Assembly (NCBI GenBank): GCA_041397945.1
Contig: JAWKVR010000008.1
Span: 23,414 to 87,413, forward strand
From: Geminicoccaceae bacterium
Lineage (GTDB): Bacteria > Pseudomonadota > Alphaproteobacteria > Geminicoccales > Geminicoccaceae
DNA length: 64,000 nt
Reading direction: 5' to 3'
Shown: positions 10,786 to 53,343 of the stretch, piece after piece
Position numbering within the stretch: the stretch's first letter is position 1
Layout: each line of letters starts with the position of its first letter
Made by a program: the position numbers and the translations under genes
Notes under the pieces: model-generated
What the model saw: only the letters and a program-made list of their open reading frames with translations
The model's database searches: none
What the model was told of the DNA's origin: nothing

Positions 10786-12252
10786 ACAGGCGGCTGAGCC
10801 GCGCCTCGCTGGGCAGCATCCCGGCGGTGGTCCACCGGCCGCTTCGACCCGGCCGGGCGGGCCATGGCATCGTCCATCTCGGTGTCGGCGCCTTCCACCG
10901 CGCGCATCAGGCCGTCTGCACGGACGACGCCCCGCCGCTGCCGGCGGCGACTGGCGCATCCTGGGCGTCAGCCCGCGCAGCACCGCCATCGCCGACGCGC
11001 TGAACCCGCAGGACGGGCTCTACACGCTCCTGATACGCGGCCCCGAAGGCACCGAAGCCCGGGTGATCGGCAGCATCGCGCGGGTGATCGCCGCTGCGCG
11101 CGAGCCGGGTGCCGTGCTGGCGGCGATGAGCGACCCCGCGACGCGGATCGTCAGCCTGACGGTCACCGAGAAGGCCTACGGCATCGATCGCGCCGGCGGC
11201 ATCCTGCCCGACCATCCCGCCATCGCCCCCGACCTGCGCTCGCCGCGCGAGCCGAAGGGGGCCATCGGGCTCCTCGTCGAGGCGCTGCGGCAGCGCCGGG
11301 AGCAGGGGCTCGACCCGTTCACCGTGCTCTCATGCGACAACCTGCCGGAGAACGGTGCGCTCCTGCGGGCGGGCGTGCTCGATTTCGCCGCCCGGGCTGA
11401 CCCGGCCCTGGCGCCCTGGATCGAGGCCGGGGTGGCCTTCCTCGACCATGGTGGACCGCATCACGCCGGCGGCGACGCCCGCCACGCTCGCCGACGCCGC
11501 CCGGCTCACCGGCTGCGAGGACCGGGCCGCCATCGAGACCGAGCCCTTCAGCCAGTGGGTCATCGAGGACCGGTTCACCGCCGGCCGCCCGGCCTGGGAG
11601 GCGGGCGGGGCGATCTTTGTCGACGATGTCGCAGCGTATGAGCGGATGAAGCTCGCATGCTGAACGGCACCCACTCGATGCTCGCCTATGCCGGGTTCCT
11701 CACCGGCCACCGCTACGTGCGCGACGTCATGGGCGACCCGGTGCTGGCCCGCTGGTCAGGCGGCAGCTCGCCGCCGCGGCCGCCACCCTGCCGCGTCTCG
11801 CCGGCATCGATCTCGACGCCTATGCCGCCGATCTCTGCCGGCGCTTCGCCAACCCGGCGATCGGCCACGAGACCCGGCAGATCGCCCGGGACGGCACCGA
11901 GAAGCTGCCGCAGCGCGTCATGGCGCCGGCGCTCGAGCTCGCCCGGCGGGGCGGCGAGCTTCGCCCCTTCGCCTTCGCCGTCGCGGTGTGGATGCGCTAC
12001 GCCATCGGCCGGACCGATGCCGGCGAAACCTATGCGGTCGAGGACCCGCGTGCGGCTGAGATCCGTGCTGCCGTGGCGAGCGGCGGCACGCCCGCCGGGA
12101 TCGCCCGGGCCCTGCACGGGCTGCAGGGCCTCTTCCCGCCCGAGCTGGTCGCGAATGCCGCCTGGACGGGTGCGGTCACGGCGATCCTGGCCGGCATGCT
12201 CGAGCGCGGCGTCGCCACGGCGCTGGCCGGGGAGGCCGCCGGCACCGCCTGA
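10781..12252 (+). pseudogene. Mannitol dehydrogenase family oxidoreductase (fructuronate reductase / mannitol 2-dehydrogenase-like), several frameshifts
   Basis: GIVHLGVGAFHRAHQAV (ORF 9816-11003 frame). RIVSLTVTEKAYGID...FTVLSCDNLPENGALLR (11063-11641). VDRITPAATP...ETEPFSQWVIEDRF (11355-11663). MLNGTHSMLAYAGFL (11657-). C-terminus in 11920-12252. The start codon is unclear. Confidence 0.75.
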
Positions 12253-12290: not shown

Positions 12291-13187
12291 TCAGCTCAGA
12301 TGGGCCGCGAAGAAGTCCAGGGTCCGCTGCCAGGCCAGCTTCGCGGCCGCCTCGTCGTAGCGCGGGGTCGTGTCGTTGTGGAAGCCATGGTTCACGTCCG
12401 GATAGAAGTAGACGGTGAACTCCTTGCCGTTCGCCTCGAGCGCTGCGCCATAGGCCTCCCAGCCCGCGTTGATCCGCTCGTCCAGCCCGGCATAGTGCAG
12501 GAGCAAGGGCGCCTGGATCGCGGGCACGTCCTCGACCGCCGGCTGCCGGCCATAGAACGGCACCGATGCGGCGAGGTCGGGATAGGCGACCGCGAGGGCG
12601 TTGCAGACGCCGCCGCCATAGCAGAACCCGACGGCACCGACCTTGCCGGTCGAGGCCTCGTGATCCCTGAGGAACTCGAAGGCCGCGAAGAAATCCGCCA
12701 TCAGCTTGGCCCCATCGAGTTGCTGCTGCATCTCGCGGCCCTGCTCGTCATTGCCGGGATAGCCGCCCAAGGGCGTCAGCCCGTCCGGCGCGAAGGCGAG
12801 ATAGCCGGCCTTGGCGAGGCGCCGGGCGACATCCTCGATATAGGGGTTGAGGCCGCGGTTCTCGTGCACGACCAGCACCGCGGGCAGGGGGCCTGCGGCG
12901 TCCGCCGGGCGGGCCATCAGCCCGACCATCGGCCCGTGACCCTCCGGGCTCTGATACTCGACCCGCTCCGTCACGATGGCCGGGTCGTCGGGGGCGACCT
13001 GCTGGGCCAGCGCATAGTTCGGCTGCAGCTGCTCCAGCACCATGGCACCGGTCACGCCTGCGGCGGTGTACTGCCCGGCCTGCGCGATGAATTCGCGCTT
13101 CGACATCTTGCCGTGCACGTAGCCGTCGAAGATCTCCAGGATCCGCTGGTCGAAATCCCGGGCACTCTTCCTGAACGACGTGGCCAT
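12291..13187 (-). CDS. Dienelactone hydrolase family protein
   Basis: [31 protein letters not shown], nucleophile motif [16 protein letters not shown]. Start MATSFRKS at 13187 with SD AGGAGGA. Confidence 0.85.
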
Positions 13188-13580
13188 TCCGTCCTCCTGA
13201 TTTGCACGATGGCTTGTGTAGGCGATCGTATGCTTCGCGGCTGCCACGTCCGGCTCGCGACCACCGGGCGAGATCGGCAGGCGCCCCGTTCAACGGGCAC
13301 GAAAGTCCAAACTAGATGCGGGACCGCCTGCGGCAATTGTCGAAGCGGCAATTCACCGTCGGGGCGCGGTAACGGCGACTGCCGCCTGATCGCGCAACTG
13401 CCACGTCGCCATCAAGTAGAGCCCGAGTGCGCCTTGGATGGTGTCTCGCAGCAAAGCCCATTTCCTGTCTCGCCAACGCATTTTGGCGACCACCTCGGCC
13501 GCACTTAAACCTGTACTAGTGATGCGTCGTGTCGTGGCCGGCAATGCCGGTCGCCCACATGCGCCTATCAGGGGGCACCA

Positions 13581-14795
13581 ATGAAAACGACATCACGACG
13601 CGCCGTGTCGCGCGCAGCCATGCTTGGCCTGACATTGTCCGCCATGCTCGCCGGCGGCGCAGCCAATGCGCAGGACGACACGGTCACCATCGGGTAGCGG
13701 TCGCGCGCACTGGCCTGAACGCCACGGGCGCCGGAATCACGACAATCCCCAACTACGAGCTCTGGGTGAAGCGACGTGAACGACGCCGGCGGGCTGGCGA
13801 TGCCCGACGGCTCGAAGCGCAGAATAGAGGTCGTGGAATACGACGACAGGTCGTCGAATGAGGATCTCGTGCGCGCGATCGAGCGCCTCGCCTCGCAGGA
13901 CCAGGTGGATCTGATCCTGCCGCCCTGGGCACCTGGGCGAACCTAGCCGTGGCGCCGCTTTTCGACAGGTTCGGCTATCCGCAGCTCGCCGTCACCGCGG
14001 TCACCGACAAGGCGCCGGAGTTCGCGGCGCGGTGGCACCGCAGCTTCTGGCTCCTGGGCGGCGGCCACGACTACGCCGAGGGCCTCGTTGGTGTCCTCTC
14101 CGCTGCGCGCGATGCGGGCATCATCAACGACAAGATCGCCGTGGTGTCGGTCGCGGACGGCTTCGGCATCGACCTCATCAACGGCGCCCGGCCGGCTTTC
14201 GAAGCGGCGGGCTTCGAGCTGGCCTATGATGAAACCTACCCGCTCGGCACCTGACTTCGCCGCGATCATGAGCGAAGCGCAGGCTTCCGGCGCGGACAGC
14301 TTCGTCGCCTTCTCCTATCCACCCGGCAGCTTCGGGATGACCAAGACGGCGCAGGCCACGGGCTACAATCCCAAGGTCTTCTACGTCAGCGTCGGCGGGG
14401 CGTTCCCGATCTATCCCGGGATTGCCGACGGCAAGGCCGAAGGGGTCATGGCCATCGGCGGCGTGAATGCCGACTCGCCCGCCATCCAGGAGTATTTCGA
14501 GCGCCACACGGCGTTCGTCGGCACACCCCCCGACAGCTGGGCCTCGGCGATCACCTACGCATCGCTCGAGATGCTGGCGCAGGCGATCGAGCGGGTGGGG
14601 CTCGATCACGAGGCGCTCGCCCAAGAGCTCTCGTCCGGCACCTTCGAGACCATCGTCGGCGAAGTGAAGCTGGAGGACAACCAGCTTCGTGATCTCTGGT
14701 GGGTCGGCCAGTGGCAAGGCGGGGCGTTCCGGGCCATCAACCCGCCCGACAAGGAAGGGGCGTCGGACCCGATCATCCCGAAGCCCGAGTGGTGA
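13581..14795 (+). pseudogene. Branched-chain amino acid-type (LivJ/LivK-like) ABC substrate-binding protein, multiply frameshifted
   Basis: ATG at 13581 gives MKTTSRRAVSRAAMLGLTLSAMLAGGAANAQDDTVTIG (signal peptide), then an in-frame TAG. Further pieces are in ORFs 13949-14254 and 14088-14795 (...SFVAFSYPPGSFGMTKTAQATGYNPKVFYVSVGGAF...). Confidence 0.7.
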
Positions 14796-14857
14796 CCGCC
14801 TGAGCCCGAGCGCGGGCCGGCCCCGGCCGGCTCGCGCGACCTGCGAAGCGGACGACC

Positions 14858-15724
14858 ATGCTGACGACGCTCATCCTCGGCCTCGTGCTCGGCGGCACCT
14901 ACGCCCTGCTGGCCCTCGGGCTGACGCTGCAATACGGGATCGCGCGGATCATGAACCTCGCCTATGGCGAGCTCACCCTGGCCGCGGCCTTCGTTCTCGT
15001 CGCCCTGTTCAACGGCCTCGGCGTGTCGCCGCTTCTCGCGATCGTCGCGATTGCGCCAACCGGCTACGCGGTCGGCTGGATGCTCTACGCGGTCATGTTG
15101 CGCCCTCTCGTCCAGCGGTCCGCCGCGCGCGATCGGCTCGCGGTCGATTCGATCCTCGCGACGTTCGGGCTTCTCTTCGTGATACAGGGCCTCCTTCTGG
15201 TCACCTTTGGCGCGAACTTCACCTCGATTTCGTACCTCGACCGCGGCGTCCGGCTCCTGGGCGTCCCGGTGGCGCTCAACCGCCTGATCGCCTTCGGCAT
15301 CTGCGTCGTCGCCGTCGGGGCGCTGATCTCGTTGTTGTCGTGGACCCGATGGGGGCTCGTCCTGCGGGCGGTGGCACTGAGCCCGGCGGCGGCGCCGCTC
15401 GTGGGCATCGACGTGAACCGCGTCGCCCGGCAGGGCTTCGCGCTCGGCACGGCGCTGGCCGCCGTTGGCGGCGCCACGATCGCCATGTACCAGACATTCT
15501 CGGCGACGGACGGTGTCGTCTTCACCATGAAGGCGCTGGTCATCGTCATCATGGGCGGCGTCGGCAACGTGATGGGTGCACTGATCGCCGGACTGGCGCT
15601 CGGTCTCGTCGAGACCTTCGTGGCCACCGCCATCGACCCGGGACTGACGCTGGCCGCGACCTTCGCGATCTTCCTCGTCGTCCTCCTGTGGCGGCCGCAA
15701 GGTCTCTTCGGGAGCCGCATGTGA
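14858..15724 (+). CDS. Branched-chain amino acid ABC transporter permease (LivH-like)
   Basis: Intact 288-aa hydrophobic ORF: MLTTLILGLVLGGTYALLALGLTLQYGIARIMNLAYGE... Confidence 0.85.
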   Translation: MLTTLILGLVLGGTYALLALGLTLQYGIARIMNLAYGELTLAAAFVLVALFNGLGVSPLLAIVAIAPTGYAVGWMLYAVMLRPLVQRSAARDRLAVDSILATFGLLFVIQGLLLVTFGANFTSISYLDRGVRLLGVPVALNRLIAFGICVVAVGALISLLSWTRWGLVLRAVALSPAAAPLVGIDVNRVARQGFALGTALAAVGGATIAMYQTFSATDGVVFTMKALVIVIMGGVGNVMGALIAGLALGLVETFVATAIDPGLTLAATFAIFLVVLLWRPQGLFGSRM

Positions 15725-38540: not shown

Positions 38541-38583
38541 GCGGCGGTTGGGCGAGAGAACTGAGTTCCCCTCGAACCCTCCG
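38541..38583 (+). repeat. Copy 1 (degenerate) of a roughly 45-nt hairpin element (...GGTTGGGCGAGAGAACTGAGTTCCCCTCGAACCCTCC)
   Basis: Aligns by eye with 44563-44610 and 45470-45520. It sits where high-G+C coding sequence gives way to a low-G+C stretch with no gene. Confidence 0.6.
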
Positions 38584-38907
38584 ACCAAGCTAGGCGTTCT
38601 TCGCCTTGGCCGGTCGTTCGTCGGGCTGTCGGCGAGCTTCGAGGATCGCGCCGTCCGCCTTCGGTCTACAATCGTCCCGACGAGCGCTTGGCGGCACGGC
38701 CATGCCGAGCCCGTCGCCCAACGCTTCAGCGTTCCGCTTTACGATGCCGATGCCCGGACCTTGCAAGTTCTTGTGCCTAGTGCTGGGTGAAAGACGAATG
38801 TGATGGAGGCGCCGGCACCTGCTCTCTCTGGTCCGAAACGCTTGTTCCGAATTTGGTTGATTTATCGCCCTAGCAGTATTGCTCCGGCCGTTCGCAGAGC
38901 GCGGCGC

Positions 38908-39390: not shown

Positions 39391-39896
39391 CTACGTCGAA
39401 TAGAGATGCCCATTGCCGGCCTTCCTCGCCTTCGCCCGATCGTTCGCGGAAGCGCGAGCTTGGTCAGGTCGCTGTCCGTCTTCGACTCTCCTGCAGCGTC
39501 GCGTCGAGGAGCTTGGCGGCGTCGGTCATGCCGAGCTCCGTGGCCCAGCGCTCAGGTCCCGTAGCGGGTGATCTCGTATGCTGGACCGCCTGGGCCGACG
39601 AGATCAGCCCGGCATCGAGCGCCGCCGTGTCCTTGAACTCGTCGATGATGTCCCGCCTTCGGCGACGATGCCTCGATCGCATCGCAGGTCTGCCCGGGCG
39701 CGCTTGTCGATGATGTCGAACACCTGCTGCAGGCGCTCGACATGCCTTCGGTCTCCCGCTTGTTGTCGAACGCGGCCTTGAGGTCGTCGGACGGGCGGCC
39801 CGCTGCATCTTGGGCAGTGCCTTCAGGATCTTGCGTTCCGCGTAGTAGATGTCCCTGAGCGTCGTGAAGAGATCGTCGTCTTTTTCCCTTGGCCAT
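39391..39896 (-). pseudogene. DUF892 / YciE-like ferritin-like protein, multiply frameshifted
   Basis: MAKGKKDDDLFTTLRDIYYAERKILKALPKM (my reverse-complement translation), DDLKAAFDNKRETEG, IIDEFKDTAALDAGLISSAQAV, YEITRYGT and ATELGMTDAAKLLDATLQE lie in different frames (ORFs 39552-39896, 39464-39808). Confidence 0.7.
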
Positions 39897-39926
39897 GGGG
39901 AAGTTCTTCAGTGGTTGAAGCCCGAA

Positions 39927-41632
39927 TCACGCCATGCGTGACCGCGCATCAAACGCGCCTGATCTGGCGGCGTTCCCGTGCCGCGCAATTGCTCCTTTCT
40001 GCGGAACGCCGTCACGACGCCCTGTTCGAGCCAGCCCTCGGGCATGCACCCCGCGGAACATCCTGCCCAGATGCCGCTCGACGTGCGCCTCCCATGGCAG
40101 GCAGCACAAGCCGACATGCTGGTCGGGACGGACCACGACGAGCGTCGGCGTATCGGCACCGAGCCTTCGTGCAAGCGACCTTCGGGGTCCGCCACCACGA
40201 GGTCCCGGCCCTCAGCCGACGGAACGGCGCTCCCGCCACGCACGACCGTGACGAGCCTGGCATCCGCATGGCGCTCCAGCACAGGTGCCAGCCCGCGCGC
40301 CATCGGGCCGGCATCCGGTGCTGCATCGGCGGTCAGGAGGAGGATCGTCGGGCCCCGCAGGGCAAGCAGCGCATGCAGGCTCGTCTCCCCCTCGGGGCCT
40401 GCGAGGTCGGGCACGTCGGGAATACGTGCCCCGACCTCGACCGGGCCGGTCGCACCGTCCCGGCAATCCTCGATGATGGCGCTGTCCGGATACCGGCACG
40501 CCAGCTCCGTCTCGCCCATCGCCGCCAGCGCCTGGCCCGTCGGCTCCTTCAGGAACGCGTAGACCTCCCTGAGCTTCTCCCCGGTCCTGTCCGTCATCCA
40601 CCCATACGCCTCGTCACCCGAGGCCACGACCTCGCGGTCGATCGATCGCCGCTCGGCATCGTAGGAGCGCAGCAGCTCCTCGGTGCCCCGGCCCGACGTC
40701 GCCGCGGCGAGCTTCCAGCCGAGATTGAAGGCGTCCTGGATCCCGGCATTCATGCCATGGCCCTGCACCGGGTTCGAGGCATGCGCGGCATCGCCGGCGA
40801 GAAAGACCCGGCCGATCCGGAACGTCTGCGCGAGGCGCGAGTGCGAATGGAAATAGGCCGGTGCCGGCGCACCGTCGAGCGTGGCTTCGGGACAGAGCGA
40901 GCGCAGCTTCTGCGTCACCTGCCCGGCAAGGTCGTCGCCCGCCGTGGCGACCCGGCAGTACATGCGCCAGCGGTCGGGTGCCAAAGGGAACTGCAGGAGG
41001 AGCGGCGGGTCGAGCTGCGCGCGAACCGAATCGCGCGACCATTCCCAGCTCTCGAGGCCGGTGTCGAACACCGCCCAGAGCTCGCCATAGTCCTTGCCTT
41101 CGTAGCGGTCGCCGATCGCCTCGCGCACCGCGCTGTGAAACCCGTCCGTGCCGACGATCCAGGGCGTCTCGACCGACCACTCGCCGCGCTCCGCCGAGCG
41201 CAGCCTGACCGTGACGGATTCCCCGTCCTGCTCGAGCGCCACGAACTCGGTCCCGAGCTCGATCTCGCCGCCCAGCCGGCGCACCTCGTCCGCCAGAATG
41301 CGGATCGAAGCCGACTCCGGGATCGACAGGATGTTCTGGTAAGGCGAGTCGATGGCGCCGAAATCATAGGCGGCCACTTCCTCGCCGTCGGAGTAGAACT
41401 TGACGCCACGGACCCATTCGCCCTGCTCGACGAAGTGTGAGATCAGCCCGATGCTGGCGAGGATCTCCAGCGTCCGCTGCTTGATGAAGATGGCAGCGCT
41501 CCAGTCCGGCAGCTCCGGATGCCGCTCGACCAGCCGCACGGGCACGCCGCGCCGCAAGAGCTCGATGGCGACCACCAGACCCGTCGGTCCGGCACCGACC
41601 ACCAGAACAGGATGTTCGCGGCTCGCCAGCAT
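39927..41632 (-). pseudogene. FAD-dependent aromatic-ring monooxygenase (PheA/TfdB family), frameshift near the C-terminus
   Basis: HPVLVVGAGPTGLVVAIELLRRGVPVRLVER, GTDGFHSAVR and FLAGDAAHASNPVQGHGMNAGIQDAFNLGWKL are continuous from 41632 to about 40150. The tail VVRPDQHVG is in ORF 39927-40136. Confidence 0.8.
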
Positions 41633-41814
41633 CGCCGATCTCCCTGTTTTCGAATTCTTGTCCGGTCCTCGATAACGGCAGTCGGTTGCTGAAATCAACT
41701 ATGCCCGCGCAACGAGCCCGCCCTCTTGCATTGCTCGAACCTTGACAGGCGCCCGCTTGCCGGTGAATTCCGCCCCCTGAGGTCCTCCGCTACGCCACCC
41801 GCATCGCCCGGCCG

Positions 41815-42605: not shown

Positions 42606-43893
42606 TCATCTGTCGGAACCTTGCTCGACGTCTTGTCCCGGGAAGCAACGCTGCCGGTCTACGGTGCCCGGGTGGCCTGGAACCGCGCCAGTACAGCGAA
42701 CGAATGCCAGCGCGGTTGGCGAGGTCGATGAGGAAGGCGCATCAGCGGCACGACGATGAAGGCGAGGCACGGCCCGTAGTGCTGGGGCACTGCCGCCATG
42801 TTGGCCATCGCCGTGGGCGCCGGAACTGAGCGAGATGCCGCCGAAGCCGACGAGATCACCGCGCCGCGTCGTAGCCGCGCCCCATCGCGCGGAAAGATCG
42901 ATGCGGATGCCGGACCAGGACGCTACCACGAACTGACGGCAATGATGAAGCAAAAGTGGTCCCGCCAGGTCGACCAGGTCCAGAGCTGCATCGACACCAG
43001 CGACATGAAAGAGGAACGTGCCGAGCGAGACGGCGATCAGCGCCATGGTCAGGCGCGCGACGGCCAGCGTGCCGGTCAGGAGGCGCTGCCGCTTTTGCGG
43101 CATGACGTTGGTGAGGGCGATGCCGGCAAACAGGCAGGTGACGAAGAGCGGCAGCTGCAGGCCGGCGTCGCCGATCAGGCCGCTTGAGGACGAGGCCGAG
43201 GATGGCGCTCAGATGGATGGCGAGCAGCGCGTCGAGGAAGTCCAGATGGGTGACCGGCGCGGCGCCGGCGGACTTGGGCCTGCCGACGTCCTGGCCGCGG
43301 TCGGTCGATTCGAGCTTGTGCCGGGCAATCAGGAATTTGGCGATCGGCCCGCCCATCAGGCTCGCCAGGATCAGGCCGAAGGTCGCCGAGGCGACGCCGA
43401 TCTCCATGGCATGGGTGATGCCGTACTCCTCGGCGATCCGCGGCGCCCAGGCGATCGCCGTGCCGTGCCCGCCGATCAGCGACGGTGCCGCCGAGCACCC
43501 CCATCGCCGCCGGCAGGTCGAGCATGCGCGCCACCGAGATGCCAGTGATGTTCTGCACCATCATGTAGGCGATGGTCGTGGCCAGGAGGATGATCAGCGG
43601 CCTGCCGCCGGCGACCAGGTCCGCGAGCCGGGCGTTGATGCCGATCGTCGTGAAGAAATAGACGAGCAGCAGGTCGCGCGCACCGAGATCGAACCCGACG
43701 CCGATCCCCGTCGCCGCATGGACCAGGCCAAAGCAGGACGGACATCACGAGACCGCCGACCGCCTCGGGGATGCTGAAATCCCGCAGGAACGCGATGCCC
43801 CGGTTGAGCCGTCGGCCGAGGAAGAGGACGATGACTCCCGAGCGTGAAGGCGAAGAACGGCCCGACCTCGAACGTGCCGTCGACCAGCTCCAT
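42606..43893 (-). pseudogene. gltS: Sodium/glutamate symporter GltS, multiply frameshifted
   Basis: MELVDGTFEVGPFFAFTLG, VIVLFLGRRLNRGIAFLRDFSIPEAVGGLVMSVLLW, MMVQNITGISVARMLDLPAAMGVLGGT, MEIGVASATFGLILASLMGGPIAKFLIARHKL, TAMANMAAV and LAFIVVPLM lie in several frames. SD GGGGAGGTG precedes the ATG at 43893. Confidence 0.75.
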
Positions 43894-44082
43894 GCCGGTT
43901 CACCTCCCCTGAACACGAAACTGCGGACCGCCTGCCGACGCCCGTCGATCGGCCAAACCTACACGGAACCGCCCGGCAGGTGAAATCCGGGGACAGGGCC
44001 GCCGATAACGGCTCGCCTGTGAAGCCCGGCGGCAATCTGATAGCGTCAGCCCTGCAAACCGGGCCACAAGGGGGACGATCTC

Positions 44083-44589
44083 ATGACCGAAGCACGAGAG
44101 GACGGCAACTGGCGCAACAACGGCGTGCGGATCGTCAAGTCGTCGGAGCTGGACTTCAACACCGCACAGACTCCGGGCATGACCCGCGCCGCCGTTATCA
44201 ACATGGCCAAGGTGGGCGCCAGCAAGCTCTGGGCCGGCACCGTCGGCGTCGGAAATCCGAAACGCCAAGACCGGCGCCCACCACCACGGCCACCCTCGGA
44301 AAGCACCATCAGCAGTCGTCATGGCTGCGCCTGTACTGCGCTGGGGCGAACGCCTCGAAGCCTGCGGCCGAGGCCGACCCCGGCGACTTCATCTTCGTGC
44401 CGCCCTACGTCCCCCACCAGGAGATCAACGCCCTCGCCGACGAGCCGCTCGAATGCATCCTGATCCGCAGCGACCAGGAGCCCGTCGTCGTCAACCTCGG
44501 GACATCGAGCCGGCTACGAGAGGCCTGAGGAAGTCCGCTGGATCGACCCGAACCATCCGAAGAACGGGTGGCTACGACGGGGGAACTGA
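44083..44589 (+). pseudogene. Cupin-domain protein, frameshifted; 3' end uncertain (44528 as written, 44589 if aligned with the paralogous remnant)
   Basis: MTEAREDGNWRNNGVRIVKSSELDFNTAQTPGMTRAAVINMAKVGASKLWAGTV (ORF 44083-44463), then PGDFIFVPPYVPHQEINALADEPLECILIRSDQEPVVVNL (ORF 43980-44528). The conserved tail ...GWLRRGN-TGA places the stop in the loop of the 44577-44599 hairpin. Confidence 0.7.
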
Positions 44590-44599
44590 GTTCCCCCGT
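44577..44599 (+). repeat. Copy 2 of the hairpin element: ACGGGGGAAC-TGA-GTTCCCCCGT (10-bp perfect stem, 3-nt loop)
   Basis: Base pairing checked by hand. Embedded in a roughly 125-nt segment (44485-44610) that recurs at 45395-45520. Confidence 0.7.
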
Positions 44600-45289
44600 G
44601 CCCCTCCGGTCTCGCTTGAGAATCGTGCTGGCTGGTGCCGGTCAGGACCTACGATCGGAAGTCCTGGCCTGCGGCGAAGGGAAAGGTTACCGCGGCGAAC
44701 GAACGGGCCTGCCGGCGGCGGCTGCGGCCTGGTCGGGGGCCTTGCTCGCCATAGGCTGGAGCGACGCCCGGCCTGGACGGCCCGCCCGTGGTGCGAGGGC
44801 TTCGTCGGTGCACCTATCTGGTCGACAACCTTGACGGTGATGGATCGGTCGACTCGCGCAGCCTCGTCGTCCCCGCCGCCGATGGCACCTTCCTCTTCGT
44901 CGACTCCAACCAGGCCGGGTTGGCAGGCAGCTTCAACCCGTTCACCGACGCCGCCGGAAGCTGGTCCTGCCGCCGCATCGGCTTGAGGAGCGTGGCCGAG
45001 GCGGTCGTCCTCGACTTCACCCTCCCGCGCGAAGGCGACGCGCAACCAATGCCCGCCTCGACTATTTCGGCATGACGGTCGACCGGCGGGTGCCATCGAG
45101 GGCCAGGCGACCCTCCGCTTCTTCCGCTCGACGCTTCTGACCCGCCCACGCACCCCCCAACACCGCGACGCCCCTACCGCTTCCAGGGCCAGCGCATCAC
45201 CCCCAGTCTCCTCCAGCGGCCCGGGTAGTCGAGCCTGCAATAACCCCGGCGGGCGGGGCGACAGTAGGAACCAGTTGTATCCCCCGAGC

Positions 45290-45520
45290 GGTTGGCGACC
45301 GGGCGTTGCCCCACGTCCTGCACCAGCAGATGAACCTCGCCGGCGCCAGAAGCGCCTGAACGTGCGCTGCCGTTCCCGCTAAAGCGATCAGGAACTCGTC
45401 GTCGTCAACCTAGACATCGAGCCGGCCGAGGAGGTCGAGGAGGTCCGCTGGGCTTTTCCAACCGAACCACCCGAATGGGTGAGGGGCCACGGCGGGGGAA
45501 GTAAGTTCCCCGTGTCCCCT
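45290..45520 (+). pseudogene. Degenerate duplicate of the cupin gene's 3' half plus hairpin element copy 3 (GGGGAA-GTAAG-TTCCCC at 45495-45511)
   Basis: ...PHVLHQQMNLAG...ELVVVNLDIEPAEEVEEVRW...RRGK-TAA parallels ...PHQEINALAD...EPVVVNL...VRWIDPNHPKNGWLRRGN-TGA of the upstream cupin. My by-eye nucleotide alignment is about four-fifths identical over the last ~125 nt. Confidence 0.65.
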
Positions 45521-45814
45521 TCTGTTTTTCTTGGTCATAGGCCTTGGCGGTGCAGTCGCGGCATGCGAGTATATCCCCGGCCGATTACTGGCCCTTGAAG
45601 GTTCTCCTCCAGTTTCGAGAAAACCCTGACTGCCCAATTCAGATTCTGACAACGTCTGGATCGCCGGACGTCTCACGCTCAGCCGTCTCAGGTGTCTGGG
45701 GTTTAGTCTGGGGCTTCTGGCACGCTCAAAACCCTTGATTCCGCGCAGCGCGGTGAAAAGGGACAGAAAAAGACCGTTTTTGTCGGCTTCCCGCACAGCC
45801 TCAACCAAGAAGCC

Positions 45815-45885: not shown

Positions 45886-46130
45886 GTGAGCGATCCGGAT
45901 ACGGTGAAAATGGCTTACGGGCGGTAACCGGCTTCGGGCCGGGCTCGGGGTGACGCAGTCGGAAGTGGCGAAGAAGGCCCCTGGTGACCGGGAGCTGTCT
46001 CTCGCGGATGGAAAAGGGTGAGGCTGTCTCGCCGGAGGAAGTTGGCCGGGTACTGATGCCTCGCGGCGCTCGGCTCGAAAGAGGGAAGGGTTCGCGGTTC
46101 ATGGCGCAGGAGTGGCGCTTCGCCTGCTGA
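45886..46130 (+). pseudogene. XRE-family helix-turn-helix regulator, at least 2 frameshifts
   Basis: SD AGGAGGG then GTG. RLRAGLGVTQSEVAKKA and CLSRMEKGEAVSPEEVGRVL (HTH_XRE pattern) lie in different frames. Confidence 0.6.
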
Positions 46131-46149
46131 ACCGCCGTCGTCCTACTGG

Positions 46150-47000
46150 AACTGACCGCTTGGCCGGAGATCGCAGCGAGACACTGGGAGAAGATCGGAG
46201 AGCTTCCTCGGCGACGAGGAGCAGCCTTGGCCGCTGCGCCGTCAGCTGGAGCGGCGCAAGGGCGATCTGCTGCGGGCGGCGGGCTTCCTGAGCAGGCTGA
46301 AGCACAACATCGCGTTCATCGGCGACATCGAAGTCGGTGTCCACAGCGATCAGCTTCGTCTTCGATCTGCTGGTCCCGGCCAAGGCGGAAGAGAAGAGAA
46401 CATCAGCCGCCCGGTGCTCGAAAAACCGGCGCGGGCGGCATCACGATCTGCGAGGTGCACACTCCAAGATCGGGACCCGAGTTCGGTATCTCAGTGCTGC
46501 CCATGGATCTACCCGACCTGACCGATCTGTCCATTTCTGCGCGGGCGAAGTAAGGCGCATGCACCGCAAGGAAGGCGAGAGTGCGGAGATGCCGTGCAGG
46601 TGAGCCGCGAGGTCGAGCGGGCCATCGTGCAACATGTCGAAGCTGAGTGCCGCAGGGTCATGACCGACGGCAAGGCGAGCTATCACGACCCGATCCACGA
46701 TCTGGATCCGCGACTGTCAGGGCGAGGACGAGTTCCGGGCGGGTCATCGGCGCGATGAACCTGCCAGAGCGGACCAATACGAAATCTGAAACGAGTGGCA
46801 CCCGCAAGCATCCGTCCAAATGGATGCGCGAAGCCTTCCTCGCCGTGAACAATGGCCGGATGCGCGACGTACCCCTGCCGAGGAGCATCGGACTGATCGT
46901 GCCAGATTTCGGCAGGTCCTTCGGCGAGTTCGAGATTACGGCTTCAGACACCAAGGGCGGGACTACGTTGTCGTGCGCGAGGATTTGGACCTGCGCCTGA
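46150..47000 (+). mobile_element. IS1595-family (ISXO2-like DDE) transposase remnant, heavily frameshifted
   Basis: Family-like strings in order across frames: LTAW, LRRQLERRKGDLL...IAFIGDIEV (VE-DE-type first catalytic region), KAEEKRTSAAR, TGAGGITI, AIVQHVEAECRRVMTDGKASYHD (HVEAGS..TD...Y pattern), TNTKSE, SFGEFEITASDTKG (EFEFR.N.R pattern). I found no terminal inverted repeats. Confidence 0.45.
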
Positions 47001-47166
47001 AGGACCCCCGCACCTCGGTCGTGCTGCAGCCGCTTCAACGACGCGCCGAGCACGAGCGCTGCTGCCGTGCTTCTGCGCACGCTGTAGTAAGACCTCCCCT
47101 GGATGGTTCGACACCGGCAAGGTCTCGGATCCTGTCGCTGCCGCGCTCGGGCGAAGCGGGAGGGAG

Positions 47167-47491
47167 ATGAAGGACGATATGGGCGATCAGGCCCTCACCG
47201 ACGAGGAGGGGTACGAGTTCAAGCGCTTGCAAGTCGCGGCCGAGCTCGATGCGGAAGACATGTCTGGGGTCGCGGTGTTGTTCTTCAACGTCGAGAGCGA
47301 CGATGCGGCGAAGGTCAGCCGAGCTGTCGGCTCAACTGGCGCTGATGCGAGAGCATCCGTCCCCGGAGCAGGCTGTTCAACCCTTTGCGACGCCGCGACC
47401 GAGATCGGTCGAGAACCTACGGGAAAACATGCAGTCACTGCGGCGATCGGTGCAGGTCGCCCGGCGGCTGAATACGTTTCTTCGGGGGTAA
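47167..47491 (+). pseudogene. Hypothetical small acidic protein (about 108 aa, one frameshift near 47318)
   Basis: SD GGGAGGGAG abuts the ATG. MKDDMGDQALTDEEGYEFKRLQVAAELDAEDMSGVAVLFFNVESDDAAKV, then ELSAQLALMREHPSPEQAVQPFATPRPRSVENLRENMQSLRRSVQVARRLNTFLRG. The stop overlaps the next ATG (TAATG). Confidence 0.4.
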
Positions 47492-47715
47492 TGGAAAGCG
47501 CCGGTGCCAGAGAGCGCCATGCCTACGAGGAGGCTCTGAGCACGGTGCGAGGAAACCGCTACGCCCTGAGTTTGGCTGGACTGGCGAGCGCATGGCCCAA
47601 CATCGTCCACCAAGTCGGCGTGGGGGCGGCAAGAGATGCGCGCCTGCGCTCGCGGGACTGGTTCGCCAAGATTCGAGGCCACGTGGAACGAACTGAAGGC
47701 GGATGGAGGACCTGA
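47491..47715 (+). CDS. Hypothetical small protein (74 aa), translationally coupled to the preceding ORF
   Basis: MESAGARERHAYEEALSTVRGNRYALSLAGLASAWPNIVHQVGVGAARDARLRSRDWFAKIRGHVERTEGGWRT. I recognise no homologue. Confidence 0.3.
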   Translation: MESAGARERHAYEEALSTVRGNRYALSLAGLASAWPNIVHQVGVGAARDARLRSRDWFAKIRGHVERTEGGWRT

Positions 47716-48101
47716 CGCTCGCCTCTTCGCACTCGATCGACCAGATCGGCGCAGTGGCAGAGGCTTCGAAGCGGACCTTCCTAGAAGGGCGCAAAGCGGC
47801 TTGCCATGGAAATTCATCATGAGCCACTGGATGCAGGACAGCGTTTGGACGGACTGCGCCTCGGAGTGGGGTAGAGGGCCGGGCTTCAAGGACCGTGTGG
47901 TGGGGCACTGCACCAAGGCCTGACGAGACCCGTCCGGACTTGAAGGAAGCACTTCGACGAGGAGGTTGGCGGCGCTTTGGGAGTGGGCGGTGATCGCGCC
48001 GCCGATGCAACTGACCGAGGAGCGTGAGCCGAAGAGGCTGCTATGCCAGATGGCAATAACGTCATTGCGCTCCGCTCCGCAGTTTCTGCCTGATGACGGT
48101 T

Positions 48102-48142: not shown

Positions 48143-48272
48143 GACGGGGTGGATTTTGTGGAAGGAAGGTAAACTGATAATGACGCGCTAGACTGTGTCA
48201 GGCTCGGGATCGCCCATTCGGTCCAGTCCGGTAACGGTCGTCGAGATCGCAGCCTCCAACCGTACCACCCCC

Positions 48273-48926
48273 TCAACCCGCCCCATTCCGCTCCCAGAAA
48301 TCCTCGATCGCCGCGGCCGCCTCACGGTCGATCGCCGCGCTCGCCTGTCGCCCGGCCGATGACGACATCCTCAGTACCGCCGCCGAAGCGCACCCTCCAT
48401 GTTGGCGGGGTTGGCGATGGCGTCGCATTGGTGGTCGGCGAAGCTGGTGATCGAGCCCTGGACGAGCGTGGGCCGGTCGGGCGGCGAGGGCTTGGCGAAG
48501 AGGGTCCGGTCCGCGTCGTCATAGGCCACGACCACGGCCTCGACCGGACCCCGGTGGGTGCGGCAGGCGGCCACGACTGGCCCGGCCAGCTCGGCCTTGT
48601 CGATCGGCGGGCCGATGCGGTCGGCGAAGATGCCGCCGGCGATGAAGGGCAGGGCCAGCCGCCGGCAGCCACGCGACGCGGCGAGGGCGAAGGCGTTCGC
48701 GATCGACGCCTCGACCGAGGCCCGGTAGGCTTGTGCCGGGTCGGTCCCGACGGTCATCGAGCCCGAGGCCGCATGGGCGATGCCCTTGATCCCCTGCGCC
48801 TGGGAGCCACCCTGCCCCGGTCCACAACGCCGCCCTTAGCGGCACCAGCATGCTGGCGCCCGAAGATCTCGGCCTGCGGCCGGAAGCACATGTGACCTGC
48901 TCCGTCGCGACATACCCCATCGGCAT
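48273..48926 (-). pseudogene. Macro-domain protein remnant: one macro domain (N-half degraded) followed by the first ~45 aa of a second macro domain, then truncated
   Basis: SD GGTGGAGGGG then ATG at 48926. GIKGIAHAASGSMTVGTDPAQAYRASVEASIANAFALAASRGCRRLALPFIAGGIFADRIGP...VEAVVVAYDDADRTLF (macro C-half). Then TLVQGSITSFADHQCDAIANPANMEGAL and, after a frame change, FGGGTEDVVIGRATGE (macro N-half motifs GDIT..DAIVNAAN..GGGV). Confidence 0.6.
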
Positions 48927-48983
48927 CCCCTCCACCCGCTGCGTCCGCCCGGCGGCCCGAAAACGAACCCGGGCACTCCGGGA

Positions 48984-49119
48984 TTGTCGCAGAATCTGCG
49001 ACAACGAACCCGAGCTTGTCGCATCTGATGCGACAAACACCACCCGGTTGTCGCATCAGATGCGACTGCTGTCGCAGATTCTGCGACTCTACTGGGGCCA
49101 GAGTCGCATCTGATGCGAC
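48984..49119. repeat. Array of five perfect palindromes with shared arms GTCGCA/TGCGAC, two core variants, alternating orientation
   Basis: 48984-49004 TTGTCGCAG-AAT-CTGCGACAA. 49016-49036 TTGTCGCAT-CTG-ATGCGACAA. 49048-49066 TTGTCGCAT-CAG-ATGCGAC. 49071-49087 GTCGCAG-ATT-CTGCGAC. 49103-49119 GTCGCAT-CTG-ATGCGAC. Confidence 0.85.
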
Positions 49120-49319
49120 AGACGGCGGTCACGCGAAACGAACCCAGGGAATCGACGCCGAACCCACCGAATCGCTTGGCCGAGCCGGTTTCGGTTCGTT
49201 CGTCGTCAGGAAGCCGCAAAGCGCCTGGCTTTTCCTCGCCCCGGACCCCGCCGCCCCCTGTTTTGCCGAAGGAACCCGCCGGCCTCTGACGGGCCGCCCG
49301 AGCTAGGCTGGGAATCCTA

Positions 49320-50343
49320 TCACGCTGCGATCTCGATCCGCCGTCGGCCTTCGGCGGCCGAGCGAGCAGGGCGTCGATCAGCCGGTGGACGCAGCGCCTC
49401 CCGGGCGGTGACCCGGGGCTCGCGGCCCTCGTCCAGGGCGCTGGCGGAAGTCGGGTGATGACCGCCTTGTGCCGCCTCGGGCTGACGCCGGTGAAGTCGT
49501 CTTCGGCCGATGCCGCCGGCCTCGCCCGTGGTCCGGCTCCGGCCGTCGAGGAAATCGCGGGTGAGCTGGCCGCCGTCGAGCAGGGCGACACCAGCCCGCC
49601 AGCACGAGCGAGCTCGGCGCGGCCCGGATGGAAGGTGGCAGGTCGCCATCACGGCACCCAGCGCCCCGTTGGCGAAGGCGATGCCGCCGCCGACGAAGTC
49701 CTCGCCCTCCATCCGGTGCATGGCCGAGGTGCCACCCATGGCCTGCACCGCCGCCGCCGGGCCGGTGAGGCTGAGCATCAGGTCGAGGCTGTGGATCGCC
49801 TGGGTGACGAGGACCCCGCCGCTGTCGCGCGCCAGCGCGCGCCGCGCCCGGGCACGTCGTAATAGCCTCTGCGGTCGCCACCTGCGGGCACGCTGAGCTG
49901 CACCGTGGCGAGCGTGCCGAGATCGCCGTCGGCCAGGTGCCGCGAGCTCCGTGGCCGCCTCGGCAAAGCGGTGCTGCAGCACCACCCTGGTGGTCACCTT
50001 CGGCCCCCTCGGTCAGCGCCACCACCCGTTCGCCGCCTCGAGGGTGCGCTCGAAATGGCTTCTCCATGAGGAGGTGCTTGCCCTTGCCCGCGAGTTGCTC
50101 CACCAGCTCCAGCCGCGCGTGCGGCGGCGTCAGGAGCAGCACGGCCGTGACCGCCGGGTCGTCGGCGATGGCGTCCAGCGTCTCGACGACCGGCAGGCCG
50201 TAGCGCCCGGCGAACGCCTCTCGCCGCTCGGCCGAGGGGCTCCAGGCCCGCACCTCGACGCGGTCGCGGAGGTCCTGGAGGCTCTGGGCATGCGGGGCCA
50301 CCGCCATGCCGAGGCCGATGAGGCCGATGGTTCGCCTGGTCAT
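49320..50343 (-). pseudogene. Gfo/Idh/MocA family oxidoreductase, multiply frameshifted
   Basis: MTRRTIGLIGLGMAVAPHAQSLQDLRDRVEVRAWSPSAERREAFAGRYGLPVVETLDAIADDPAVTAVLLLTPPHARLELVEQLAGKGKHLLMEKP (ORF 49378-51660 frame). GGVLVTQAIHSLDLMLSLTGPAAAVQAMGGTSAMHRMEGEDFVGGGIAFANGALG (ORF 49320-49997). Confidence 0.75.
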
Positions 50344-51623
50344 GTCTCTTGCTCTCCCTGCCAGTGAAGGATGTCGATCGGCTGCTCGCGCCCGCGCACG
50401 GCCTGGGTCGGCAAGGCCAGCCAGTGCGCCTGCTCGCCGGCCTCGGCGACGATGGCCGCCGAGGCGACGAGGCCGCCATCGGTCTCGCGGGTGATCTGCT
50501 CGAGCCGGGCCGCGACGTTGACCGTGTCGCCCAGCACCGTGAACTCGAGCCGGCTGCTGTCGCCGACCGCGCCGGCGAAGGCCGGCCCGAAATGGGCGCC
50601 GATGCCGATTCGCACCGGTGCCTCGCCGGCGACGGTCAGCCGGTCGCTCCAGGCGCCGACCCGGCGCAGGAGGTGGCGGGCGCAGTCGAGCGTGCGGCGG
50701 GCGTCGTCGGCATGGCCGTCGGGCACCCCGAAGACCACGATGGCGCTGTCGCCGACGAACTTGTCGACGACGCCCCGATGCGCGACGGCCGCCTTGACCA
50801 CGTGATGCCGGAACGTGCCGAGAAAGGTCGAGAGCTCGGGCGGGGCCAGATGCTCGCTCCGCCGGGTGAAGCCCCTGATGTCGACGATCAGGATGCCGAT
50901 CCGCACGTCCCAGCCGCGCCTGAGCTGCTCGACATCGCCGGCGGCCAGCAGGGCCGCGATCTCCGGCGGCAGGTAGCGGGCGAGGTTGGCGCGCTCCACC
51001 GCCTCCTCGACCGCCCGCTCGAGCAGGGCTTTGCGGCGCGCGGCGGCCAGCACCAGGACGAAGCCGGCAAGGCCCAGGAGCACGATGCGGACGACGGTCG
51101 GCGGCAGGTCGAGCAGGGGCAGGATGCGTTCGAGGTCGCCGTCGTCCGGCAGGGCCGCGAGGAGCAGGGCGAGCCCGCCGACCACCACGACCGCGGCGTA
51201 GCCCTGCAGCCAGGGCCGGTAGTGGAGCGAGCCGAAGACCAGGACCAGGGGCGCCAGCCAGATCGCCGGGAAGACCCAGGCCGTCGAGGCGGGTGCCCCC
51301 GTGTTGAGCACCGTGGAAGCGACGTTGAAGAGGACGAGCGCACAGTCGGCGGTGGTGAAGAGCCAGGGCATCCAGGGCCGGAACCGGCCCGGCCGCGCCG
51401 CCCAGAAGGCGATCAGGCCGTTCGCCGCATAGACGGTCAGCACGACGCTGGCCACCACGAGCTGCCGCCGGGCGGCGGGCGGTGGCAGGTCGACAGTCAG
51501 CAGGGCCACCGAGATGGCGAGCGCCAGGATCGCCACCGCGACCAGCCGGAGGATCGCGAGGAACCGCTCGGCCTCGATCTCGGCCGAAAGGAAGAGCTGC
51601 TCCCTGACACTCCCGATGCTCAC
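50340..51623 (-). CDS. Membrane-anchored class III adenylate/guanylate cyclase
   Basis: Intact 427-aa ORF. Six hydrophobic segments, then GILIVDIRGFTRRSE...VVDKFVGDSAIVVFGVPDG...IGIGAHFGPAFAGAVGDSSRLEFTVLGDTVNVAARLE. The stop overlaps the downstream ATG (ATGA). Confidence 0.88.
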   Translation of the reverse strand: MSIGSVREQLFLSAEIEAERFLAILRLVAVAILALAISVALLTVDLPPPAARRQLVVASVVLTVYAANGLIAFWAARPGRFRPWMPWLFTTADCALVLFNVASTVLNTGAPASTAWVFPAIWLAPLVLVFGSLHYRPWLQGYAAVVVVGGLALLLAALPDDGDLERILPLLDLPPTVVRIVLLGLAGFVLVLAAARRKALLERAVEEAVERANLARYLPPEIAALLAAGDVEQLRRGWDVRIGILIVDIRGFTRRSEHLAPPELSTFLGTFRHHVVKAAVAHRGVVDKFVGDSAIVVFGVPDGHADDARRTLDCARHLLRRVGAWSDRLTVAGEAPVRIGIGAHFGPAFAGAVGDSSRLEFTVLGDTVNVAARLEQITRETDGGLVASAAIVAEAGEQAHWLALPTQAVRGREQPIDILHWQGEQET

Positions 51624-51736
51624 GCCTTGCCCTTCGCCCCCGGCTCACCCCGGCACCCATAGCGCCGCCGCACCCTGCTTGTCATGCCGGGCCCGAGCCG
51701 ATAGGCAACGGCGAAACGGCCAGCGGGGGGGCAGGC

Positions 51737-53343
51737 ATGGCGGACTACATCATCGTCGGCGGCGGGGCCGCGGGATGCGTGCTTGCCGCCCGGCTCTCCG
51801 AGTTGCCGGAGGCTTCGGTGCTGCTGCTCGAGGCCGGGCCGCCGGACACCGACCGGCTGATCCACATGCCGGTCGGCTTCTACCGGATGACGGACGGCCC
51901 GCTCACCTGGGGCTTCCGCACGGCTCCCCTGGCCCATGCCGACGGTCGCGAGATGGTCTTCCCGCAGGGCCGCGTGCTCGGCGGCGGCAGCTCGATCAAC
52001 GCCATGGTCTACACCCGCGGCAACGCCGCCGACTACGATGCCTGGGCGCACGAGGAGGGTTGCGACGGCTGGGCCTATGCCGACGTGCTGCCCTATTTCA
52101 GGAAGGCCGAGGACAATGAGCGGCTGAGCGATGCCTGGCACGGCACTGGCGGGCCGCTCGGCGTGTCCGACCTCGTGAGCCCGCATCGTCTGAGCCTCGC
52201 CTTCGTCCGCGCCTGCCAGGAGGCCGGCATTCCCTACAACCCCGACTTCAACGGCAGGGACCAGGCCGGGGCCGGGCTCTACCAGGTGACGCAGCGGGGC
52301 GGCCGGCGCTGCTCGACCGCCGTGGGCTACCTGAAGGCGGCGCTGGGCCGCCCGAACCTCGAGCTCGTCACGGATTGTCGGGTCGAGCGGCTGATCGTCG
52401 AGGGCGGGCGGGCGGTCGGCGTCGCCTACAATCGCTACGGGCGGCAGGAGATCGCCCGGGCCGAAAGCGAGGTGATCGTGACCGCCGGTGCGGTCGGCTC
52501 GCCCCGTCTGCTGCTCCTTTCCGGCATCGGCCCGGCCGACGAGCTGCGTGCGCTGGGCATCGACGTCGTCCACGATCTCGAGGGCGTCGGCCGCAACTTC
52601 CACGACCATATCGACGCCTATGTCATCAGCGAGCTCAGCGGCCCGCACTCCTATGACGGTCACACCCGGCCGCATCGCATGCTGATGGCCGAGCTCGAGT
52701 ACAAGCTCTTCGGCAAGGGCCCGGTGACCTCGAACCTGGCCGAGGGCGGGGCCTTCGTGCTGACCGACCCGGCCGAGCCGTCGCCCGACATCCAGCACCA
52801 TTTCCTGCCCGGCGCCGGGCTCGAGGCCGGCGTGCCACCCGTGCCGTCGGGCTATGGCTGCACCTGAACGCCTGCTACCTCCGGCCAAAATCCCGGGGCA
52901 GCATCCGGCTCCGCTCGGCCGACCCGGCCGACGCACCGGTCATCGACCCCAACTACTGGGCCGAGCCCGCCGACATGGCCGCAGCGCTCCGCGGCATCGC
53001 GTCGTCCCGGGAGATCATGGCGCAAGCGGCCTTCGCGCCCTTCGTCAGGCGCGAGCACCTGCCCGGCAAGGAGGTCACCTCGCGCGCCGATCTCGAGGCC
53101 TATGCCCGCCGCTTCGGCAAGACCGACTACCACCCCGTGGGCTCGTGCAGGATGGGCCGGGACGCCCGCGCCGTGGTCGATCCCCAGTGCCGCGTGCGCG
53201 GCATCGAGCGGCTGCGTATCTGCGACAGCTCGATCATGCCCCGTGTCGTCAGCTCCAACACCAACGCCGCCTCGATCATGATCGGCGAGAAGGCGTCCGA
53301 CCTGATCAAGGGCAACCGCCGGGCGGGCGAGGCCGCGGCCTGA
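51737..53343 (+). pseudogene. GMC family oxidoreductase (choline dehydrogenase-like), single frameshift near 52860
   Basis: MADYIIVGGGAAGCVLAARLSE...GRVLGGGSSINAMVYTRG is continuous to 52867. Then LNACYLRPKSRGSIRLRSADP (my translation) and YHPVGSCRMG...ICDSSIMPRVVSSNTNAASIMIGEKASD are in ORF 52975-53343. Confidence 0.85.

Follow-up and report, generated by a model that had tools for sequence, protein, structure and literature searches.

Why does the 3' end of a cupin gene, together with the hairpin that follows it, occur twice within about 0.9 kb of the chromosome of a Geminicoccaceae bacterium, and does the second copy mark the border of a piece of foreign DNA? The locus lies in a 64-kb stretch of assembly GCA_041397945.1 (contig JAWKVR010000008.1, positions 23,414 to 87,413), hereafter called the window, to which all coordinates refer unless another locus is named. 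The reading favoured here, with a rough probability of 0.55, is that the repeat is an old scar, left when the insertion of a single gene, termed X, duplicated the 3' end of the upstream cupin gene inside a hypervariable hotspot. The elements on which the argument relies are the following.

44083..44571, + strand: full-length cupin gene, 157-amino-acid (aa) RmlC-like cupin family; the stop position 44569-44571 reads TGG in this assembly
44402..44638, + strand: repeat copy A, comprising cupin codons ~104-157, the stop position, a short spacer, the hairpin and ~25-40 nt beyond; the same extent is seen at 10307-10523 in the related locus L001
44577..44599, + strand: palindromic hairpin ACGGGGGAAC-TGA-GTTCCCCCGT resembling repetitive extragenic palindromes (REP-like), 10-bp stem, identified by exact match and predicted fold; the conserved tail GCCCCTCCG follows
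44664..45267, + strand: gene X, orthologue of a 196-aa signal-peptide protein without a Pfam family, the lone gene between the copies, with ~11 frameshifts here
45308..45553, + strand: repeat copy B, a 5'-truncated cupin 3' fragment; orthologues at L001 11229-11455 and L089 1250-1463
45554..45690, + strand: post-B segment, still common to the window, L001 and L089; differences between the genomes start only beyond it (three-way alignment)
45905..48060, + strand: gene of the low-G+C island, a protein of 726-aa type with an XRE-type helix-turn-helix (HTH) and a P-loop, split over at least five reading frames

The first-pass annotation had reported, by eye, that 44485-44610 recurs at 45395-45520 with about four-fifths identity, and that weaker homology extends leftward to about 45290. 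Alignment by blastn with permissive scoring bears this out and yields a longer direct repeat, 44402-44638 versus 45308-45553, with an expect value (E) of 2e-30, 178/252 identities and 21 gap positions; the weaker leftward similarity, PHVLHQQMNLAG versus PYVPHQEINALAD, is also real and reaches ~45308. The estimate of four-fifths is right for the core (~80% by blastn) and agrees with the mean column identity of a MAFFT alignment (81% over 296 columns), but drops to 71% when gaps are counted. Ungapped cores are 90% (44469-44497 / 45383-45411) and 100% (44501-44514 / 45413-45426) identical, and comparison of the whole window with itself finds this pair to be the sole short-range repeat of its type in 64 kb. 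Copy B contains, in order, a PHV..HQ..N remnant, ELVVVNLDIEPAEEVEEVRW, the motif NHPNG-TGA (45474-45482, with the TGA at 45480-45482), an eroded hairpin at ~45493-45513 and a T-run at 45526-45531. The 10-bp-stem hairpin described for the repeated region is exact in copy A, where a minimum free energy of -30 kcal/mol is predicted for its 66-nt context, whereas the version in copy B has lost one C, carries a loop mismatch and folds no better than shuffled sequences (z -0.67).

The TGA in the hairpin loop had been taken as the stop codon of the cupin gene. Members of this very widespread 157-aa RmlC-like family end in ...VVVNLDIEPAEEVEEVRW(I/V)DPNHPNG-stop, 5' of the hairpin, and the stop of the intact L001 cupin sits 10 nt upstream of it; the loop TGA is therefore not the cupin stop, and the homologous codon is 44569-44571. 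The frame-corrected translation of the window gene is 82% identical to the 157-aa cupins P0001/P0002, and its alignment to the intact L001 gene contains 13 indels, 11 of them frameshifting.

The origin of the repeat is best read from relatives, which were compared across ~80 listed genomes with this cupin plus metagenome loci, the closest of them found through protein look-ups. The L001 locus (NCBI GCA_030431615.1) is syntenic with the window, with flanks ~85% identical, a cyclase 89% identical at the amino-acid level and a GMC oxidoreductase at 96%, and it presents the same order with intact genes: the cupin (10001-10474), a hairpin, X (10605-11195), a cupin fragment (11229-11455), a hairpin, and a low-G+C core (G+C 0.49-0.58) with a 286-aa open reading frame (ORF). 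Its fragment is 83% identical to copy A over 229 nt and 88% in the coding part. Two Logan runs (L089/L090) carry X, B and the post-B segment after an unrelated methyltransferase gene, with no cupin upstream, and there the post-B segment continues into the island of window type up to window position 45780. The cupin closest to that of the window belongs to an ENA contig (L104), in which the cupin, the spacer, the hairpin and the start of X are seen. The sequence common to the window, L001 and L089 runs ~190 nt past the hairpin of B, after which L001 diverges. Moreover, all B copies have in common the B-specific left junction GACCGnnTGTTGCyCCAyGT, so that they are orthologous to one another, and the duplication is therefore older than the divergence of the genomes represented by the window, L001 and L089. 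No cupin from another taxon is as near to any B as the L001-type copy A is, which argues that B arose from the resident cupin.

The spacer and the hairpin appear to have been duplicated along with the coding part. The spacer between stop and hairpin in copy A of L104 matches that in copy B of L001 and L089, and the T-run after the hairpin is common to copy A of L104 and copy B of the window; hence both features lay inside the duplicated segment and were not acquired twice. Since its origin, B appears to drift about neutrally: the ratio of nonsynonymous to synonymous differences (pN/pS) between A and B is 0.29-0.49 (0.43 in L001), as fits one constrained and one neutral lineage.

The finding of one layout in independent assemblies from different projects (GCA_030431615.1, the two Logan runs and the ENA contig) also bears on whether the second copy might have been produced by the mis-joining of strain variants during metagenome assembly. 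An abnormal density of small indels between 38 and 50 kb would suggest a poor consensus and lends this idea some substance, but the two copies are distinct in sequence, each with unique flanks left and right, and an artefact is exceedingly unlikely. The indels themselves deserve attention. Compared with relatives, gap openings number 2-5 per 100 nt at 38.0-40.1 kb and 41.7-50.0 kb and are close to zero elsewhere, with almost none in the GMC oxidoreductase region at 51.7-53.3 kb. Frame-shifting indels versus L001 count 11 in the cupin, 11 in X, 13 in the macro gene to the right of the island, 21 in GFO/IDH, 29 in the methyltransferase, 1 in the cyclase and 3 in the FAD monooxygenase (gene at 40.3-41.7 kb). 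They are not linked to homopolymers (42% adjoin an identical base versus a background of 45%) and, against the near-identical L104, they show a patchy distribution. Substitutions at codon positions 1/2/3 amount to 7.0/6.3/19.7% in the cupin and 7.1/5.2/22.8% in the cyclase, a third-position bias like that of intact genes and not to be expected of long-standing pseudogenes. This suggests either that the frameshifts arose very recently or that they are errors of the consensus where strains vary. The indel density also depresses the A/B identity in the window, so that neither the low identity, nor the pseudogene state of the cupin, nor the TGG at its stop position should be over-read. The same caution applies to any pseudogene annotation in this stretch.

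The first-pass annotation had interpreted the two copies mainly as the attachment sites (attL/attR) of an integrated low-G+C island beginning at the second copy. The repeat of a gene 3' end does adjoin DNA of lower G+C: G+C goes from 0.67-0.71 to 0.55-0.60 at 45.4-46.0 kb, is 0.59-0.67 up to 48.25 kb and then 0.70-0.75. The drop that had been described is thus real, but it is modest, and the variable DNA starts near the repeat, at ~45690, and not at its edge. More decisively, the low-G+C DNA (45.9-48.06 kb) is found beyond copy B, outside the pair, and the segment between the copies holds X, a conserved gene of normal G+C. The topology is what defeats the attachment-site reading, since an island outside the repeats is not delimited by them. 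Relatives, moreover, keep the order cupin-X-B next to a different island (that of the window has no homology to that of L001). Local scores for a third cupin copy or an attachment core at the right border of the island (47.9-48.5 kb, and likewise in L001 and L048) stay below the 95th percentile of shuffles. Taken together, these data make it very unlikely that the copies are attL and attR of the island, and they caution that repetition of a gene 3' end next to low-G+C DNA need not denote an attachment pair: where the foreign DNA lies with respect to the copies has to be considered.

The content of the island speaks in the same direction. It had been described as an XRE gene, a remnant of an insertion sequence (IS) and orphan ORFs, a description that gives way to that of the pieces of one HTH/P-loop gene, with the IS not confirmed. 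Specifically, 46203-47310 (1.1 kb) matches at 67% nucleotide identity the gene of a 726-aa helix-turn-helix transcriptional regulator on a Sphingopyxis plasmid (NZ_CP012704.1), where it adjoins DUF262, RelE/HigA and methylase genes; with the 726-aa protein as query, tblastn accounts for residues 56-711 between 46060 and 48034, spread over five or more frames, and the frame-corrected N-terminus matches HTH_31 (E 2.9e-6). The stretch proposed as an IS remnant belongs to this gene. As the island is fully covered by it, there is no room for an integrase. A six-frame Pfam scan of 43.9-49.5 kb on X-joined translations matched nothing, not even the cupin, and is insensitive, so that frame-corrected pieces were used instead; with these, no integrase or recombinase is found in the ORFs of the window at 43.9-49.5 kb, of L001 at 10-14 kb or of L048 at 10-13.5 kb, a search that is itself insensitive in the frameshift-rich window.

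What the first-pass annotation had broadly right is that the repeat looks like an insertion footprint next to foreign DNA; B is a 5'-truncated, apparently non-functional copy of the 3' end of the resident cupin. In the favoured reading, a segment of ~0.7 kb carrying X would have been inserted just downstream of the hairpin region of the cupin gene, and this insertion would have duplicated the last ~54 cupin codons, the stop, the spacer and the REP-like hairpin, the latter being carried along within the duplicated segment. The upstream copy would have stayed part of the complete cupin, and the downstream copy B would be a 5'-truncated relic with no evident function. The event would be sited in a hypervariable hotspot of this Geminicoccaceae lineage, between a DUF892 gene and a macro-domain-like gene, before the split of the window, L001 and L089, with the low-G+C gene to the right of B as separate cargo of the same hotspot. 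Two mechanisms may give this product: one reciprocal crossover between the chromosome and a small circle carrying the 3' end of the gene (Campbell-type), either homologous or catalysed by a recombinase acting in trans, or break repair with a template switch that re-enters the chromosome upstream of the break. Campbell-type integration of a circle with an internal 3' gene fragment, as with suicide plasmids and specialised transducing elements, leaves an intact copy, the insert, and a copy truncated at the edge of homology. The layout here is the same, in direct orientation, with one complete copy and one sharply truncated copy, in the window, at both the cupin and the macro gene of L001, and in L048; it differs in that no vector- or phage-like backbone is present, and a left boundary that recurs in two phyla is not predicted by the Campbell model. 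As a duplication scar, the repeat is a fresh example of an already known type of feature.

Two of the cases just named are independent of the cupin duplication of this lineage. On the other side of the low-G+C core, L001 holds the macro gene (14134-14814, - strand), then a gene Y (159 aa, signal peptide), then macro', which repeats the final 106 macro codons; the duplicated stretches, 13080-13411 and 14124-14455, are 82% identical over 332 nt with no gaps and an open frame, so that macro/Y/macro' mirrors cupin/X/B across the core. In a metagenome-assembled genome of Anaerolineaceae (L048), a cupin gene precedes 648 nt of low-G+C DNA that contains one ORF (103 aa, coiled-coil/transmembrane), after which the cupin 3' end is repeated (10311-10483 versus 11132-11304, 173 nt, 92% identical). 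Low G+C is found on both sides of this second copy, which is followed by a solitary low-G+C gene for a GajB-like UvrD helicase. The left boundary of the duplicate in L048 (10311) and that in L001 (~10307-10312, in the same coordinate frame) lie within ~5 nt of each other, at the same codon, a coincidence that two cases are too few to separate from chance, whose probability is estimated at ~5-10%. A possible further example is L091, where 150-nt direct repeats (845-994 and 1593-1743) enclose one ORF (134 aa, coiled-coil) that neighbours an X homologue; these repeats consist of the promoter and first codons of the downstream gene, of which the related L086 has one copy. The small ORFs between the repeats were also considered as one family, a candidate that was rejected: those of L048 and L091 do not align, and L048 versus L050 gives weak coiled-coil similarity.

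These independent cases weigh on the second origin that had been proposed, the decay of a tandem paralogue, in which a second full-length cupin downstream of X would have lost its 5' two-thirds and gene conversion would have kept the rest similar to A. B is indeed a degenerate partial copy, and copies A and B of L001 share a lineage-specific CAG (Gln) in DIQPA where both window copies have GAG, which is compatible with gene conversion. The comparison with single-copy relatives that had been suggested as a check nevertheless finds second cupin matches (tblastn, blastn) in L001, L048 and the window alone, always as 3' fragments; the other ~78 of the ~80 cupin genomes listed have no second copy within 10 kb, and none of the ~80 has two full-length copies. 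No significant similarity extends upstream of codon ~97-104 in any of four genomes, so that no trace of a cupin 5' part precedes B, and three parallel 5' deletions would be required, given that L048 and the macro gene repeat the layout independently. Paralogue decay is thus rather improbable. An apparent extension of B to cupin residue 64 in L001 (an AHHH match) is not significant on its own and was judged to be chance. As for wider context, none of the 80 species representatives listed is syntenic with the window at this locus, and L092 has a single cupin in a different context, with a convergent gene 13 nt later.

The shared left boundary is among the points in favour of site-specific integration of another kind. 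In Escherichia coli K-12 the icd gene runs into the element e14, and a C-terminal pseudogene, icdC, lies at its far end, as also with phage 21 (PMC13626634; Hill et al. 1989 cited there). By analogy, a small element, of which X or a cis-mobilisable remnant served by an integrase in trans is what is left, would have integrated in the PYVPHQEIN-coding part of the cupin gene (with CCCTACGT..CACCAGGA as the putative site of an attachment core), would have brought a new 3' end and displaced the native one, now B, and the low-G+C gene would have occupied this site before or after it, by accretion. The geometry is that of icd / e14 / icdC (PMC13626634), with a complete gene, inserted DNA, and a 5'-truncated copy of the 3' end of the gene, the copies resembling each other without being identical; as described for icd (PMC13626634), a single hybrid gene would re-form if they recombined. 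In L048 and in the L001/window clade, which are unrelated, the duplication begins at the same codon, and foreign, defence-like cargo adjoins B each time (the GajB-like helicase in L048, the HTH/P-loop gene in the window). The differences are considerable, however: e14 is a 15-kb prophage with its own integrase between the copies, and here only 0.65-0.75 kb with one ordinary-looking ORF (0.7 kb with the gene of a secreted protein in the window) separates them, while foreign-looking DNA lies outside the pair. The searches described above gave no integrase in any of the three loci and no third copy where the neighbouring island ends, and macro/Y/macro' shows the same geometry on another gene, which speaks against a cupin-specific recombinase. 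The lone IMG/VR viral contig (a provirus) with this cupin has a single full-length copy and not a 3'-only fragment beside an integrase, although as a scan for a phage-borne 3' fragment this was uninformative. An integration of e14 type is accordingly conceivable, though unlikely; it ranks second behind the insertion scar and ahead of paralogue decay.

A more general proposal is that single-gene segments of ~0.65-0.75 kb are inserted, by a recurrent process that may be site-directed, just past a resident stop codon (beyond the hairpin, if there is one), with duplication of the final 170-340 nt of the resident gene. The cases counted for it, three or four and independent, are cupin/X in Geminicoccaceae, macro/Y in L001, cupin/small ORF in the Anaerolineaceae genome, and possibly L091, all of them at the edge of variable defence- or plasmid-like DNA. 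We regard this as quite speculative and more probably wrong than right by a wide measure. If true, through a dedicated mechanism such as small circles with homology to the target or a recombinase acting in trans at the PYVPHQEIN-coding sequence, it would be a previously undescribed route to gene arrays at hotspots. In any case, a layout seen in two phyla, once at the same codon, and at the borders of variable regions is of wider interest than this locus.

Several observations weigh against the single-gene insertion scar as the origin of the repeat. That the left boundary recurs in two phyla hints at site specificity and is not accounted for by a process that is random or driven by homology alone. 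Gene X itself, as far as its sequence contexts tell, shows no sign of being a mobile cassette, since its homologues in L086-L088 sit in ordinary contexts with no flanking repeats. The state of L089/L090, with X and B and no cupin, needs a further rearrangement or implies another order of events. For neutral relics it is slightly surprising that the macro fragment and the cupin fragments of L001, L048 and L089 can all be read in frame up to the native stop. Neither an excised state, in which the cupin would be joined directly to the post-B segment, nor a circular intermediate was found. Lastly, the fine details of the window copies are unreliable owing to the abnormal indel density. Of X it may be added that its family comprises 20 proteins, that the L001 protein matches the window with 64% identity over residues 46-196 at 44812-45264 (tblastn), the nucleotide alignment joining the window gene to L001 10605-11195, that the 0.7-kb segment has normal G+C and is conserved in relatives, and that the L001 gene has no Pfam or PADLOC match.

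The setting of the scar is a chromosomal interval whose content differs from genome to genome and whose edges are formed by two genes.

39417..39990, - strand: DUF892 gene, left edge of the hotspot; the gap between DUF892 and the macro gene is just ~140 nt in L094, L095 and L096
48266..48935, - strand: macro-domain-like gene, right edge of the hotspot, convergent with the cupin, at which synteny with relatives resumes

On the right side, blastn aligns 48269-53339 to L001 14130-19293, and 48266-53339 to L094. L094, L095 and L096 lack everything from DUF892 to the macro gene, 7-8 kb with the cupin included, and the spacer of the empty site (L094 13458-13554, and likewise in L095 and L096) consists of ~6.2 tandem copies of the 15-nt unit TTCGTGTCCCGACTT (GAAAAGTCGGGACAC on the other strand). 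Because the two edge genes lie ~140 nt apart in three relatives, the 7-8 kb are accessory DNA, and the cupin itself resides in a hypervariable hotspot. The window contains there an FAD monooxygenase, a methyltransferase, GltS pieces, the cupin, X, B and the HTH gene; L001 contains a histidine kinase, a methyltransferase, an acetyltransferase, the cupin, X, B, the core, macro' and Y. Integration hotspots between conserved core genes are a general concept in bacterial chromosomes. The interval resembles them in being empty in three genomes and filled in two with 7-8 kb of partly different genes, including cargo of plasmid or defence type, but differs in having no integrase or tRNA and an empty site with about six tandem 15-nt repeats. 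The locus thus tells of a long-lived insertion hotspot between DUF892 and the macro gene in a Geminicoccaceae lineage.

Within this interval, fragments resembling GltS (sodium/glutamate symporter), assigned by eye from ORF translations, occupy several frames at 42606-43916 (- strand), between a methyltransferase remnant and the cupin; in L001 the acetyltransferase gene takes their place. The FAD-dependent monooxygenase (40052-41747, - strand), between DUF892 and the methyltransferase, is the one clean gene in the indel-rich zone; in L001 an FAD-dependent monooxygenase lies at 2406-4001, between GST and ADH, and it is absent in L094-L096. The macro-like protein (48266-48935, - strand; L001 14134-14814, - strand) has a weak Pfam match and appears circularly permuted relative to Pfam Macro, with an ALPFIAGGIF block before the GSITSFADHQCDAIANAANM block, an order that is found even in the intact L001 protein.

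The hairpin, lastly, has a distribution of its own. The search for further copies that the first-pass annotation had called for gives four exact copies of the 19-nt core GGGGGAACTGAGTTCCCCC in the 20-kb locus L001, of which three lie 8-11 nt past the stop codons of + strand genes (GST, 2-hydroxyacid dehydrogenase and cupin) and the fourth 24 nt past the stop remnant of copy B, all four with the tail G-N-GCCCCTCCG. The window has one intact and two eroded copies, one of the latter at ~38545-38590, at a place orthologous to a copy in L001, and in the L089 copy a stem pair has changed from G-C to A-T in a compensatory manner. The core is matched in 112 metagenome stretches, one subset of which has the same tail. 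The hairpin is treated here as a member of a dispersed family of REP-like palindromic repeats located after stop codons, an assignment made on sequence grounds. The REP/BIME class is that of repetitive extragenic palindromes; the likeness is that the hairpin is a short G+C-rich palindrome with conserved loop and tail, multicopy, intergenic and right after stops, whereas its sequence is unrelated to enterobacterial REPs and corresponds to no Rfam family (no match with E<=1 in a scan of 43.9-46.2 kb), and no RAYT (IS200/IS605-like) transposase was seen in the 20-64 kb covered per genome, where no search aimed at one was made. As a canonical intrinsic terminator the hairpin was rejected: a simple scan of the window at 43.9-46.1 kb or of L104 finds none, and the T-run, where present (L104 and copy B of the window), begins ~12 nt past the stem and not directly after it.

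Another large subset of the core matches (L106-L217, samples Ga0209782 and Ga0209366) belongs to an unrelated A+T-rich repeat, CAGTGGTCAAAGTAAGGGGGAACTA ... ACCTCTTATTTTGAGCC, which has the core alone in common with the hairpin and often stands at contig ends, so that it is a high-copy element of another organism. An 18-nt palindrome, TGTCGCA-N4-TGCGACA, is present in five copies at 48985-49125, in the intergenic region that separates the macro gene from GFO/IDH; L001 has palindromic repeats at the corresponding place (14885-15127), and these arrays could be operator-like or represent a second family of REP type.

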